Assembly (NCBI GenBank): GCA_964016885.1
Contig: OZ024745.1
Location: forward strand, 22,382,001-22,446,000
Source of the DNA: Eledone cirrhosa
Lineage: Eukaryota
Direction: 5' to 3'
DNA: 64,000 nt
Part shown: one piece after another, positions 5,244 through 53,576 of the stretch
Position numbering within the stretch: position 1 is the stretch's first letter
How the letters are laid out: each line of letters opens with the position of its first letter
Translations under genes and position numbers: made by a program
Notes under the pieces: model-generated
Told to the model about the DNA's origin: nothing
Seen by the model: only the letters and a program-made list of their open reading frames with translations
The model's database searches: none

Positions 5244-5517
5244 TAATATAAGATCAAAAGATGGTTAAAGGAGTTCAATATATTTTATTATGCGCATTTC
5301 AAAAACAAACATCATCAAACAATAATATTTGTGTTTTCATCAGATAAAACAGGAGAACATGATATGAAGGCTAAAAAAATATAATAAAATATATTGAACT
5401 CCTTTAACCATCTTTTGATCTTATATTATGCATACTCCAGTCCCACAAACTGTAGAGTGCTTCTTATCCGATATCTGCATTGCTTTATTGTACTACAATA
5501 AAACTCACCTCCTACAT
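5244..5517. mobile_element. Short fold-back insertion of the same PLE family as 40409-46129, in (TA)n
   Basis: 5244-5378 matches the pLTR start at 40409/44093; 5381-5517 is an inverted arm matching 45993-46129. Confidence 0.92.
5283..5349 (-). ncRNA. Minimal type I hammerhead ribozyme
   Basis: ttttat-CTGATGA-aaac...ttt-GAAA-tgcgca-TA-ataaaa. Confidence 0.8.
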
Positions 5518-6072
5518 ATATATATATATATATATATATATATATATATATATATATATATATATATATATATATACATATATATATAAGACGTTACACA
5601 GATGGATATACTAATAGTTATAGTTTCTACTTTTGGCACAACGCCAGTGTTACCTCAGTGCATCACTGGTATTTTATTTCCTCTGTCTGGTGGCTATGGC
5701 GAAAGAGGTAATATGGCGAAAGAGGTAATAAGGACTGAGGGCAAACACCTTTCTCTCCGGACAACAACTTATCCCCGTCATTAAGTATCACTTCAGAAGG
5801 AAGGTGAGAGTGGAGAGAGAGGTGCTACACCCCAGTAAATTCACTGAAAGGTGGGTGAATATGGCGAAAATGGCCCGAGTGAATGGGCCTTCTCTGTATA
5901 TAAACCTGTAGGTTGAGGAAGGTAAACAGATGGAAGACAGGAACACCTACAAAACGTGTTCCTGGTGTTGGGGGTTGTTCTATCCACAGGGTGTAAAATA
6001 ACCCTGCAATAACGTTCCCCCCTCTCCAATGGGGATTTCGATTGTTATTTTATTATATATAGTCTATCTACG

Positions 6073-6260
6073 GGCGGTGGATTGGCAGTATCTGTAGAGG
6101 GTCGGACACCATGTTTGCACACAGTTACGTCCCTTTATGGTCTGAGTTCAAATCCCGCCGAGGTTCACTTTCCCTTTCATCCTTACGGGGCCGATAAAAT
6201 AAAGTACCAATAATACACTGGGATAATTGCTGGCCTTGTGCCAAAAAGTAGAAACAATTA
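6073..6260 (+). mobile_element. SINE family A, full length
   Basis: ggcggtggattggcagtatc...gagttcaaatcccgccgagg...gtagaaacaatt. Confidence 0.9.
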
Positions 6261-6450
6261 TATATAGTTTATTGTTATTTATTTATGTTAAAGTTATATG
6301 ATTTAATGTCCCATTTTTGTACGCCCCTGTGGCAAATAAAGAAAGATATCTATCTATCAATCTATCTATCTATCTATCTATCTATCTATCTATCTATCTG
6401 TCTGTCTATATATTAACCTGTATATCCATCTCTGTCTCACCCTTTCTATA

Positions 6451-6550
6451 TATTCATTTTATTAAGGCTAAATAGTGAATCTTGGTACTCAGAAATTCGC
6501 GCGGAATTCCAGAATAACAAGAATCACTATTTAGCCTTAATAAAATGAAT
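6451..6550. repeat. Imperfect palindrome, probable PLE fold-back remnant
   Basis: ttattaaggctaaatagtga / tcactatttagccttaataa arms, next to microsatellites. Confidence 0.55.
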
Positions 6551-6809
6551 ATTTAATATCTACTTCGGTATTGGGTACTCTTTTCTCTCAGTCGTCAACT
6601 ACACACACACACTCACACACACATACACACGCGCGCGCATACACACACTCACTCACACACACATATATATCTATATATATATATGTGTGTGTGTGTATAT
6701 ATACCTATATATATGTGTGTGTGTGTGTATATACATATAATATATATATATATATATATGTGTGTGTGTGCGTGTGTGTGTATAGAGACATATACATATA
6801 TATATAAAT

Positions 6810-7050
6810 ATATTACATAATAAATAAAACAATATAATTATTCCATTACCAATGGTTTCAGGAAATTAGACAATCCTTACAGAGACGTTCAGCTCGTTCA
6901 TCAGATGAAGCAGGACGTTTCTGTAAGCGGTCTGTAAATAAACCTCAGGTAATGAAATAATTATATTGTGTTGTTTATTATGTAATTAAATAGCTCTGTA
7001 CAATACATAGAGCACTCTTCGTTCATTTACCTTTCCTATAGAAATACTTA
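6810..7050. mobile_element. Fold-back PLE pLTR remnant with degenerate HHR (6841-6909, minus)
   Basis: minus strand ttcat-CTGATGA...cct-GAAA-ccattgg-TA-atgga; related to 52008-52301 and 30880-30960. Confidence 0.6.
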
Positions 7051-7154
7051 ACACACACACACACACACACACACACACACACACACACACACACACACAC
7101 ACACACACACACACACACACACACACACATACACACACACACAGATATATATAT

Positions 7155-7360
7155 GTAAAAGATAAATAGAAATAGCAACACAATCGATACAGTATACGGA
7201 AGGTATATATATTAGGTTAACGCTTGATATAGCAGGAAGAGGGTCTTAACGTTTCGGACGCTAGTCCATCACCAGAAGAAAGTATGAGAAATAAAATAGA
7301 TTGAGGGGACGGGCGGGTTTGAATTAAAAATAACAGGTCCATTCATGTTAACACCCCTTG
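7155..7360 (-). mobile_element. PLE pLTR fragment with minimal HHR-like motif
   Basis: homologous to 23823-24050 and 34545-34630; minus strand CTGGTGA-tggactagcgtcc-GAAA-cg-TT. Confidence 0.6.
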
Positions 7361-7524
7361 CATATATATATATATATATATATATATATATATATATATA
7401 TATATATATATATATATGCAAGAGATGTTAACATGAATATATATATATATATATATATATATATATATATATATATATATATATATATATAATTACAGAA
7501 ATGACATCATAAACACAGAGATAC

Positions 7525-7731
7525 AAAAACACAAAATCTTATGAGTATCAATCTTAGGAAGAAGTGGAGGAGGTTTCGAAGTTTCGGATGTAAGTCCTTC
7601 TTCGGGAAACGGAGAGTTCGGAAAGAGAGAGAACAGGTTGGAACATCGGAGTTTGGAAAAACGATTTTAAGATAGTCGAGGATGGTAGGCGAGTAGTCCG
7701 GCATTCGGGATTCGTGCCAAGGCGGGGAGTA
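7525..7731 (-). mobile_element. Second copy of the 4455-4663 PLE fragment (HHR 7573-7610)
   Basis: reverse-complement match; the same spurious peptide appears in the ORF track. Confidence 0.65.
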
Positions 7732-50920: not shown

Positions 50921-51362
50921 TGACCACAGATTAATATGGTTCATTGATTACTCAATGAATATAGTTTTGCAATATATTAAAAGCACTCTACAAAGAAGTT
51001 TTCTGGAGTTATCAATATTATTCAAAATATTAATAAATGAATACATTCACATAATCAAAATATATGTTTTATTATATATATTTCGAAGGTACTGTCGTGT
51101 TTATTCAGTACGACCTCGTCAGATAAAATACATGAATTGATGTATAACATACCTCAACGGTCTTGATGGTTCAATTCCAGTATTGGCAGTCAATACTGGA
51201 ATTGAACCATCAAGACCGTTGAGGTATGTTATACATCAATTCATGTATTTTATCTGATGAGGACGTACTGAATAAACACGACAGTACCTTCGAAATATAT
51301 ATAATAAAACATATATTTTGATTATGTGAATGTATTCATTTATTAATATTTTGAATAATATT
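50921..51362. mobile_element. Fold-back PLE insertion with two HHRs (51067-51128 minus, 51248-51309 plus)
   Basis: ~350-bp palindrome plus tail; ttttat-CTGA(T/C)GA-gg..gtactg..cagtac-cttc-GAAA-tatata-TA-ataaaa. Confidence 0.85.
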
Positions 51363-51415
51363 ATATATATATATATATATATATATATATATATATACGG
51401 GATATATATATATAC

Positions 51416-51973
51416 GGGATAACAAATTATTGTTATAGGTAGTCCACTTAGATGTAGTCCAGTTAGGGTACTCCGAGTAGTGGATAGTACTAACGCTTGG
51501 CTAAGTTTGACGCAACAAGACGTTTCCATAGTGATGCTGCGAGTACGCGGTGATTTCTATGGAGTAATAATAAATGGTGATTTCTATGGAGTAATAATAA
51601 ATCAAGAAAGAAGAGTGACACGGTTTGCTATACAATAAAGGCTTTATTCACATTGCTGACAATTGTTTCTCTGAACTGGTAGGTCTAGAGATCGCTACCC
51701 GCCTATTTTTGCGTTAATCGATCACCAATACTTTGTTATAACCAATCTATTCATCAGAGCATGCTCTGATAACCAGTCTATTCATATAACCAATCTATTC
51801 ATCAGAGCATGCTCTGATAAATAGACTGGTTATAACAAAGTATTGGTGATCGATTGACGCAAAAACAGGCGGGTAGCGATATCTAGACCTACCAGTTCAG
51901 AGAAACAATTGTCAGCAATGTGAATAAAGCCCTTATTGTATAGCAAACCATGTCACTCTTCTTTTTTGATTTA
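51416..51973. mobile_element. Fold-back PLE insertion with large-stem-II HHRs (51654-51761 minus, 51810-51917 plus)
   Basis: palindrome 51598-51973; tgct-CTGATGA-81 nt-GAAA-caattg-TC-agca. Confidence 0.7.
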
Positions 51974-52007
51974 TATATTTATATATATATATATATATAT
52001 ATATATA

Positions 52008-52301
52008 TGAATGAAGCAATTCCGTCGGAAAGGTACAGGAAAAAAAGTGCTCTATGTAGGCTACAGAGCTTATTAGTTATGTAATAAACAACATAATTAT
52101 TTCATTTACCAGTGGTTTCTTGAAAGCAGATATATCTGTTTTCAGTAGTCAGAATGAATAAAACATGGTGTTTTTATTATCCATAATATAAACACCATAT
52201 TTTATTCATTCTGACGACTGAAAACAGATATATCTGCTTTCAAGAAACCACTGGTAAATGAAATAATTATCTTATGTTGTTTATTACATAACTAAATAAC
52301 T
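52008..52301. mobile_element. Fold-back PLE insertion with HHR (52205-52262, +)
   Basis: ttcatt-CTGACGA-ctgaaaacagatatatctgctttcaa-GAAA-ccactgg-TA-aatgaa; minus copy has the core mutated to CTGACTA. Confidence 0.82.
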
Positions 52302-52356
52302 ATATATATATATATATATATATATATATATATATATATATATATATATATATATA

Positions 52357-52555
52357 GCAACAAGTATGACCCCGCCGGCAGAGCTCAAGCCGTTTCAATG
52401 GCTATTTCTGGACAAAAATAGCCGTCCAGAAATAGCTGTCGAAACGCCTTGAGCTCTGCCGTCGGGGTCATACTTGTTGCTATTACCCACTCTACTAGTA
52501 TTGAGTACTTTGGTGCGTTGTGGCCCTTCTGGTTCCTTACCACAATTCCTTCGTT
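52357..52555. mobile_element. Fold-back PLE end fragment (49531 family)
   Basis: inverted arms each with GAAACG..gagctctgccg..gggg; TA flanks. Confidence 0.8.
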
Positions 52556-53160
52556 ATATATATATATATATATATGTATATATATATATATGTATATATA
52601 AGGAGAGGGAGAGAGTGAGAGAGGGAGTGAGAGAGAGAGAGAGAGAGGGAGAGACATACGTTGATAGAAAGAAAGATAGATAGATAGATATTTATATGAC
52701 TATATATGTAAATATGTGTGTTGCATATTATATATAGATATAACACACACACACACAGACTCGCACACACACACATACACACACTCACACATACACACAC
52801 TCACACCCATACACACACACACACACACACACTCACACACATGTATATTCTTTGTATTATTTATATCTCTTTTATTATATTTCTAGTGTTTTCTTTTACT
52901 TTTTCAATTCAGCGTCAAAAATATTGTGATATTAGTATTATTAGTTGTAGTGGTATCTTTACTATTGTTGTTGTTGCTGCTTTTGTTGTTGTGGTGGTGG
53001 TGGTGGTGGTGGTGGTGGCGCTACTAGCGGCCGTAATGGTATTGTTGTAGAATATATGCAGCTTCATATGCAAGTGAGAATAATCTCCTCATTTACACAG
53101 ACGAGAAAACTATATATTCTCGCCTGTCTTCTAGTCCAGCAGTCGGAAGCGGTGGGAGGG

Positions 53161-53204
53161 GCCGTCCTGACGATGGCCAGTTAAGCCTGAAATTCACAGA
53201 CGGT
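53161..53204 (+). ncRNA. Degenerate HHR
   Basis: gccgtc-CTGACGA-tggc cagttaa gcct-GAAA-ttca-CA-gacggt; cleavage-site U replaced. Confidence 0.5.
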
Positions 53205-53385
53205 TGTCGCCCTTGCTTCTGCTGGACATCACCAGTGGGCGTTAGCCCCCCTGTGTTTGCATAGCTACGGCTTCCTAAAACCGTATTTCTTTGGAGATAC
53301 GAAATATTTATATATATATATATATATATATATATATATATATATATATAAATATATATATATATATATATATATATATATATAT

Positions 53386-53576
53386 ATAGATGAGATTCTA
53401 CAGGACTAGAACTGTTTCATTCTTTAGAAATCATCAGGAATCTCTGATGATTTCTAAAGAATGAAACAGTTCTAGTCCTGTAGAATCTCATCTATATTAA
53501 AACTTTTATACTCTGCAATGTATTGAGTACCTTACTTACTGTGGTTACCTCCGATTCAACCCGGAATAACGTACCT
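53386..53576. mobile_element. Fold-back PLE insertion with intact HHR (53393-53443, minus)
   Basis: same family as 49404; palindrome 53386-53495 plus tail. Confidence 0.82.

Follow-up and report, generated by a model that had tools for sequence, protein, structure and literature searches.

We analyzed a window of 64,000 nt of Eledone cirrhosa DNA (GCA_964016885.1, OZ024745.1, positions 22,382,001 to 22,446,000 of the forward strand). Within a (TA)n tract lies a full family A insertion (40409 to 46129, minus strand), which consists of an inverted L arm, a pLTR with its tail, an ORF, and a 3′ pLTR ending at S; S and L denote the short end and the long end. The intact ORF of 809 aa (41524 to 43953, minus) comprises an RT and a candidate C-terminal GIY-YIG-like EN. 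The 3′ pLTR (40409 to 41479, minus) ends at S, the 5′ pLTR and tail (44005 to 45164, minus) contain S at 44093 to 44096 and L at 44003 to 44005, and the inverted arm (45164 to 46129, plus) ends at L. A type I hammerhead motif spans 44130 to 44202 (minus), with a predicted cut after 44139, and further copies of it are found at 45941 to 45995 (plus) and 5343 to 5289 (minus).

The YRDD motif is invariant among 69 sequences. The top fold matches of a structure model of the protein of this Penelope-like element (PLE; pLDDT 86.9) are DRT2 RT and telomerases; a single-sequence fold (pLDDT 34) was useless, and Pfam and NCBIfam scans of the protein returned no match. The putative GIY-YIG region contains IY...YFG, R, and H residues; the conserved form in homologs is VY...YIG. 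The fold search gave only polymerases among the matches listed. The protein has the Hydra-clade motifs RLRWT, SDKT, CNCRIKNKC, CNLC, and CLH and lacks CCHH. The element also has the EN+ PLE traits of a single ORF with a telomerase-like RT, pLTRs, partial tandems, an inverted 5′ copy, a tail, and a hammerhead motif in the pLTR, as well as the (TA)n targeting of the Hydra clade. Judged by these traits of sequence, the 5.7-kb element is a Hydra-clade PLE. The available text on the Hydra clade of C-terminal EN+ PLEs (Craig et al. 2021, PMC8557442) describes the same single ORF, RW and DKT motifs, CxCX5C linker, CxxC, CxH, and absence of CCHH, along with the hammerhead in the pLTR, the (TA)n target, the inverted 5′ copy, and the one-end tail.

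The window holds further insertions of five families. Family A is also represented by a short two-arm insertion at 5243 to 5517 (S arm, ref 1072 to 937; L arm, ref about 1024 to 1160). Family B forms an S+L hairpin (30986 to 31430), an L+S hairpin (46216 to 46681), a lone L arm (38831 to 39068, minus), and an inverted L arm joined to a Hydra-like ORF fragment with 52% identity to family A (47467 to 47879). Family C is present as an L+S insertion (26638 to 26838) and an L+S hairpin (50495 to 50744); family D as an S+L hairpin (52354 to 52556), a lone S arm (19539 to 19594, plus), and two copies of a lone L arm (49531 to 49825, plus); and family E as an S+L hairpin (53384 to 53578) and an S arm (49410 to 49470, plus) head to head with a Hydra-like ORF remnant (48460 to 49236, minus). 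Exact-motif searches of the genome gave 19,747 matches for family A, 44,753 for B, 4,742 for C, 23,932 for D, and 11,856 for E.

Fixed termini and their pairing

The original prediction held that independent insertions reuse the same two termini. The insertions at 5243 to 5517 and 40409 to 46129 indeed have common ends, S at ref 1072 and L at ref 1160, which lie 43 to 46 nt and 134 nt, respectively, downstream of the predicted hammerhead cut. Termini are likewise common to the two family B hairpins and to the two family C insertions. The same holds in family D, where the hairpin at 52354 to 52556 has its S in common with 19594 and its L with 49662 and 49825; the latter two are one duplicated insertion. 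Because 49536 to 49662 and 49699 to 49825 form a 163-bp tandem duplicate whose flanks are 100% identical, we count them once. Four cross-copy comparisons of the paired copies revealed no common flank past the TA runs.

Beyond these pairs, S or L is the end of 27 of the 29 resolvable ORF-anchored arms (15 S, 12 L, and 2 other; a 30th arm falls in a gap). The arm ends of family A in the C1 sample comprise 53 at S, 51 at L, 2 read-throughs, 5 weak cross-family matches, and 1 locus edge, positions that exceed chance, and (TA)n adjoins 99 of 104 family A ends. S and L are spaced by about 69 to 90 nt in families A to E, where for families B to E the search anchors lie near S, so that ends further upstream are invisible. 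Fixed ends are a genuine, general feature.

One reading of these ends is that they merely track AT microhomology to a (TA)n primer. The S of family A lies at TATAT, and the exact S base moves among neighboring TA-like spots (in family E, ref 57, 64, and 70); microhomology therefore fine-tunes S. As an account of the termini themselves, this reading is largely refuted and has very little probability left, given that six equal or longer upstream AT runs (5 to 8 nt) are skipped in 29 arms and that L offers only the 2 nt AT.

Head-to-head insertions nearly always pair the two ends. Among 136 head-to-head insertions from five families, sampled from chromosome 1, 126 are S+L (two of them miscounts), 2 are S+S, none is L+L, and 8 have one off-site end. 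The two S+S insertions and many unpaired arms (24 of 104 in the family A sample, some because loci ended) are observations against twin priming. Two RNAs of the same locus might each be copied by one DNA end, from S or L, perhaps held together by the palindromic stem III of the hammerhead. Such dual priming would produce long overlaps without strand displacement; PLE hammerheads have been proposed to act as dimers (PMC4209133), and the accessible part of PMC2837659 proposes dual priming for L1. Like RNAs should, however, often yield S+S or L+L, and subfamilies are almost never mixed between arms, so we regard this arrangement as unlikely.

Arm geometry and the source of the two arms

The lengths of the two arms bear on how they were made. 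Of the 107 tight S+L junctions, 36 have an S arm that extends >10 nt further 5′ than the L arm, 13 show the reverse, and 58 are near-symmetric, with both arms ending ≤10 nt apart. In 19 of the 107, the L arm stops within the tail and the arms do not overlap, which is the shape of L1 twin priming; L-arm stops in the tail are scattered from −11 to +48 around S. The overlap usually takes in all of the S arm and can reach 1,046 nt. Such a long overlap would require the L-primed enzyme to displace a long RNA:cDNA hybrid, an observation that counts against twin priming.

A single cDNA could instead fold back or self-prime, with an endonuclease trimming one side to leave a one-sided tail, as in ideas found in the available parts of PMC3846280 and PMC8557442. 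The 58 near-symmetric junctions and the 13 with a longer L arm agree with it. Either arm can be the longer-reaching one, however, and fold-back from one cDNA is therefore disfavored: in 36 junctions the S arm carries sequence missing from the L arm, in 19 the arms do not overlap, and the L arm carries the tail, which the S arm lacks. Unequal or non-overlapping arms may result from later deletion, but several insertions keep one arm exactly at a fixed inner point, unlike random deletion. We consider fold-back quite improbable; the 36 longer S arms and the 19 non-overlapping pairs fit two cDNAs that were synthesized independently and then joined head to head.

The junctions are independent of one another, with 108 of 116 distinct. 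The possibility that ready-made hairpin masters were copied whole, or that copies are DNA-level duplicates, draws on one junction that recurs in five family A copies and on two duplicates (49536/49699 and L077). It is largely refuted and its chances are minimal, since the five recurring copies differ by 1 to 17%, most junctions are distinct, and flanks are not in common.

Subfamily alleles point to one source for both arms. In family A, 208 of 229 are common to both arms of an insertion (permuted, 19%), and in family D, 37 of 58 are (permuted, 9%), a concordance of only 64%. Rare alleles of family A are arm-specific in 77 of 81 cases; therefore, the arms have not been homogenized later. By this allele evidence, both arms of one insertion derive from the same source subfamily, and they may come from one RNA molecule rather than from two RNAs of one locus.

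A further proposal is that L is inherited: RNAs of L-ended copies would end in L+(UA)n and prime like a simple-repeat tail, leaving S as the only preset internal site. Most L junctions run directly into (TA)n, and L-ended copies with a promoter are plentiful. Against this, 8 of 62 L ends show two extra bases of read-through sequence (these copies are 87 to 98% alike), and 15 of 34 short arms differ by no more than 0.6% from pLTRs linked to an ORF, in which L is an internal position; young short arms thus match such pLTRs. Internal starts were also independent of the RNA 3′ end in the experiments described in the available text of PMC11167929. We find it improbable that L is inherited.

The original prediction also stated that inner inversion points vary freely, and here it did not hold, having overlooked a fixed inner point: 31 of 60 inner ends in family A fall at ref 902 to 905, and 44 of 100 family A arms have a single stop base. 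This point (ref 903; 44262, minus) is likely the transcription start.

A hand-made descriptor found 10 hammerhead matches in families A, B, and F and none in 20 shuffles; a stricter descriptor missed these motifs. By eye only, families C and E have a variant hammerhead core, and in family D no hammerhead was seen. Rfam gave no hammerhead or other ribozyme family among the matches listed, only chance matches to hairpins or miRNAs. We rejected the cut as the main 5′ end, with only 2 of 60 inner ends there, plus perhaps the L arm of 5243 to 5517; in the genome, just 69 copies have a base other than A ahead of the cut position, a count that leaves aside ends followed by A. Insertion ends are not set by the hammerhead cut. 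At the start of the tail, a bulged hairpin (44062 to 44088, minus), with an RCUC/GAGY stem, a 2-nt bulge, and an upper stem, is conserved with compensatory pairs; it may have a role in the choice of start site.

Probable twin priming at preset sites

The original prediction of programmed twin priming at two sites gains support, as strict S+L pairing, same-source arms, and non-overlapping arms fit two primers on one RNA. None of the outcomes named beforehand as refuting it was observed: the termini are not dispersed and do not track the best AT microhomology, and paired copies have no flanks in common. We think it probable that twin priming of one RNA at preset S and L by both (TA)n ends explains the S+L insertions. 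The PLE protein would cut both (TA)n strands, and on one RNA the two DNA ends would each prime cDNA at a separate preset site: S, directly 5′ of the conserved tail hairpin, and L, 69 to 90 nt further 3′. The shapes of the insertions suggest such priming by target DNA ends. Both cDNAs would extend toward the RNA 5′ end until they stop, either at random or where the RNA begins; the free ends would then be joined head to head. An mRNA starting within the pLTR would bear an S+L pair in its first 140 to 260 nt, so that priming there would yield the very common short hairpins, while priming at a downstream S+L pair, in L-ended or tandem donors, would give ORF-bearing copies.

Parts of this scheme have precedents. 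Both the one-sided tail and a pair of RT start sites at its borders have been published before (available portions of PMC8557442 and PMC11167929). Tails in PMC8557442 are 30 to 40 bp (Naiads, general scheme) and are ascribed to EN resolution, whereas here they are 69 to 90 nt; compared with the accessible text of that paper, the counted S+L rule, the fixed inner point, and the conserved hairpin occur only here. For Poseidon of Anolis (PAc, a lizard element; Frangieh et al. 2024, PMC11167929), the available sections report that in vitro both strands of an AT-rich target are cut and extended, RT starts internally at two sites, one at either border of the tail, and the hammerhead cut is dispensable, all in line with the scheme proposed here. 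They differ in that no strand difference in start site was seen, no pairing within insertions is reported in those sections, and the start sites lie inside the ORF start in a different clade, whereas here they lie in the 5′ UTR.

In L1 twin priming, as set out in the portions available of bioRxiv 10.1101/2024.08.27.596794 and PMC2837659, two DNA ends likewise prime one RNA, head-to-head joining uses microcomplementarity, and non-overlapping arms occur. L1, however, uses the poly(A) tail and a chance internal site, and its overlaps are short and rare (duplications in 17% of cases, median 22 bp); in the present families both sites are fixed, and the arms usually overlap. Adineta Penelope (PMC3846280, in its available part) has head-to-head pLTRs with an optional tail on one and is explained there by self-priming, with an antisense strand as the possible template; in our insertions the geometry of the arms speaks against self-priming as the main route. 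The literature searched yielded no paper with an S/L pairing count and no mention of the pairing rule, the third fixed point, or the tail hairpin.

The accessible text of PMC8557442 lists the formation of the inverted and tailed structures of PLEs among the open problems, and that of PMC11167929 leaves the steps after initiation unvalidated. Twin priming at preset sites is likely a concrete answer to the origin of these mirror-image insertions, and with a count behind the S+L rule, the geometry of the arms, and a defined hairpin in the RNA, the question becomes directly testable using the intact 809-aa protein. Such priming would also account for the many short hairpin repeats that might otherwise be classified as MITEs or microRNA-like hairpins, and a retroelement able to write from both sides of a cut is useful for gene-insertion work. 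More broadly, we give about even chances to two-ended priming being the normal programmed route of EN+ PLEs, in which a protein complex bound to the conserved tail hairpin would set two RT starts on one RNA, one for each DNA end, and every insertion would be born S+L. The S+L pair at the mRNA 5′ end would then give rise to MITE-like hairpins by the tens of thousands, and new full-length elements would be founded by L-ended or tandem copies alone.

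Hydra-clade elements in the window

By comparing the window with itself and reading it directly, we located a 5,721-bp Penelope-like element (PLE) between (TA)n runs at 40409-46129. The element carries an intact minus-strand ORF of 809 aa and, together with the insertion at 5243-5517, represents family A in the window, which also holds many hairpin insertions of 130-470 bp. The ORF contains the motifs RLRWT, SDKT, YRDD, CNCRIKNKC, CNLC, and CLH, and a CCHH finger is absent from it; this motif set appears to match the definition of the Hydra clade in the accessible text of PMC8557442. 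We found 68 homologs of the ORF at 32-40% identity, and the best fold matches of an aligned protein model (pLDDT 86.9) were the DRT2 RT and telomerases. Because Hydra-like ORFs adjoin arms of families B (loci L112, L122), C (L200, L215), D (L131, L132), and E (L226, L240) elsewhere in the genome, all five sampled families appear to be pieces of the terminal repeats (pLTRs) of Hydra-clade elements.

Other repeats lie nearby. A Neptune-type PLE (39274-40390 and 35057-35435; 743 motif matches) is arranged head-to-head; in its genome copies, we read a CxxxxCxxC linker as well as a GIY-YIG domain containing two inner cysteines. Of its arms, one stops at an internal (TA)n and the other has (TA)n plus a 35-nt tail, and we saw such pairing of a tailed with a tailless arm in three to four cases, including L262/263, L271, and, by translation, L252. 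Self-comparison also revealed over a dozen copies of an older dispersed repeat of ~190 bp, 80-95% alike (727-906, 6065-6261, 8522-8942, 12436-13157, 15598-15780, 18588-18779, 37345-38202, 59265-59480). An old imperfect palindrome (67%) at 20631-20905 is without TA flanks.

Two fixed outer ends and their pairing

Exact-motif searches of the 3.0-Gb genome gave whole-genome counts and the first positions along contig C1. Merging 30 loci per search with 40 stretches produced a small, positional sample of 170 stretches (714 kb), which takes in only copies with the exact search motifs. On a family A reference (sense strand, counted from window 45164), arms, which in head-to-head insertions are joined in pairs, end at a short point S (ref 1069-1072) or a long point L (ref 1160-1162), with the tail between them. 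The first sample comprised 53 ends at S, 51 at L, 2 read-through ends, 5 weak cross-family matches, and 1 end at an edge, and (TA)n adjoins 99 of 104 family A ends. Because the first anchor sat beside S, we repeated the search with an anchor 1.1 kb upstream: 15 of 30 arms ended at S and 12 at L, with one at 1059, one at 1039, and one cut off by an assembly gap. Between this anchor and their ends, the family A arms passed over six AT runs (5-8 nt each) without using them; the AT at L is only 2 nt. The upstream anchor was applied to family A only, and end counts for B to E rest on anchors near S.

The insertion ends named in the original prediction are all present in the window, and four cross-copy comparisons found no common flank. 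Its claim that independent copies share these termini stands for the ends themselves, but the pair at 49536 and 49699 arose by tandem duplication of one copy.

The pairing of S with L is real. Among 136 head-to-head insertions (scoring tolerance 15 nt for S and 12 nt for L), 126 were S+L (42 in family A, 12 in B, 16 in C, 39 in D, 17 in E), 2 were S+S, none was L+L, and 8 had one off-site end. Two of the 126 were miscounts (family A insertion L077 was counted twice, and L240 of family E combines an S end with a read-through end), leaving 124 of 134. Independent choice of S and L would give about half S+L (p near 1e-35 for the uncorrected count). Both S+S exceptions, L087 and L089, are older copies, 85-89% alike to the window element, that may reflect either a lost tail or true same-site priming. 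Unpaired arms made up 24 of 104 in family A, partly where the locus ended. Since 108 of 116 junctions are distinct, and the one recurring family A junction occurs in copies differing by 1-17%, the junctions are independent events.

One source element and a third fixed point

Median divergence between family A arms was 1.9% within insertions versus 7.2% between them. Arms of one insertion had 208 of 229 subfamily alleles in common (19% when permuted) in family A and 37 of 58 (9%) in family D, yet 77 of 81 rare family A alleles were confined to one arm; both arms therefore derive from one source element, without later homogenisation. We compared the reach of the arms at 107 tight S+L junctions: the one extending further 5' by >10 nt was the S arm in 36 and the L arm in 13, and the two lay within 10 nt in 58; at 19 of the 107, the L arm stopped inside the tail without overlapping the S arm. 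A single cDNA folding back on itself to make both arms could not, barring later deletions, provide both the tail and the upstream sequence missing from the tail arm. The strict S+L asymmetry favours copying of both arms from one RNA molecule, while arm overlaps of up to 1,046 nt favour a separate RNA for each.

Inner inversion points had been described as varying freely; instead, family A inner ends cluster, 31 of 60 at ref 902-905. Over 81 junctions of families A, D, and E, a fixed inner point ended the S arm in 52 and the L arm in 42. The motif that begins at ref 903 has 10,557 matches; by hand count, 56 of the first 100 continued upstream and 44 stopped. Seventeen of the latter join via self-complementary ATAT or AT, and the other 27 are preceded by G (13, about 8 apparently untemplated), T (7), C (5), or A (2). 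An extra G is a known trace of a copied cap, and the context (TC-A; TCAGT or TTAGT in family D) is one that we take to resemble an initiator. The fixed inner point is likely a transcription start. Short arms stopping there were within 0.6% of ORF-linked pLTRs in 15 of 34 cases, and at 8 of 62 L ends two bases of read-through sequence were present; both observations are consistent with priming within the 5' region of an mRNA.

With a descriptor of the type I hammerhead, we obtained 10 matches (families A, B, and F, the last a further hairpin family) versus 0 in 20 shuffles. In family A, S is 43-46 nt and L 134 nt downstream of the predicted cut, which is at most a minor end. Within the GC-rich 5' region of family D (60 nt, 52418-52480), we could see no hammerhead core, in contrast to A, B, and F, and an Rfam search there returned nothing specific. 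By eye, families E (53441-53480) and C (50600-50650) have a minimal core resembling a hammerhead, in which stem II has U-U at its base; in E, this core starts ~5 nt past the fixed inner point.

A tail hairpin and a model of insertion

The motif RCTCY..GAGYRC begins a few bases past S in families A, B, D, E, F, and H (19 window matches versus 2.4 in shuffles) and takes a variant form in family C; the window search found no match in family G. Across all sampled DNA, an upper stem of at least 3 bp follows a 2-nt 3' bulge in 169 of 270 motif matches, with 16, 13, and 6 matches in other registers; shuffles gave ~70 motif matches. Base pairs are swapped between families (e.g., U-A/C-G, C-G/G-C), and the hairpin is a putative landing site for the protein. 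Families F and H are also hairpin-plus-tail insertions with the same tail hairpin (50917-51357, 52010-52300, 6812-7049), the outer pair in H being G-C in place of A-U. The family G hairpin (51480-51971) has a 27-bp duplication in its tail.

In the model we favor, the protein would cut both (TA)n strands, each of the two DNA ends would prime a single shared RNA at S or L, and joining of the cDNA ends would follow. A one-sided PLE tail with an inverted copy is already described in the accessible text of PMC8557442, and that of PMC11167929 describes cutting and extension of both strands, with two internal RT starts flanking the tail. For that Poseidon element of Anolis, the same text reports that the strands did not differ and contains no analysis of pairing, whereas S+L pairing is counted here. 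L1 twin priming, as presented in the accessible portions of PMC2837659 and bioRxiv 10.1101/2024.08.27.596794, differs in using poly(A) and a chance site. No paper in which twin priming is applied to PLEs came up in our literature searches. Tandem arrays that could serve as donors exist (family A head-to-tail units, period ~3,657 bp, contig C6:38070986-38085870, L025-L029). If the mechanism is true, full-length copies that end at S, the window element among them, would yield protein and short hairpins, and few full-length offspring.
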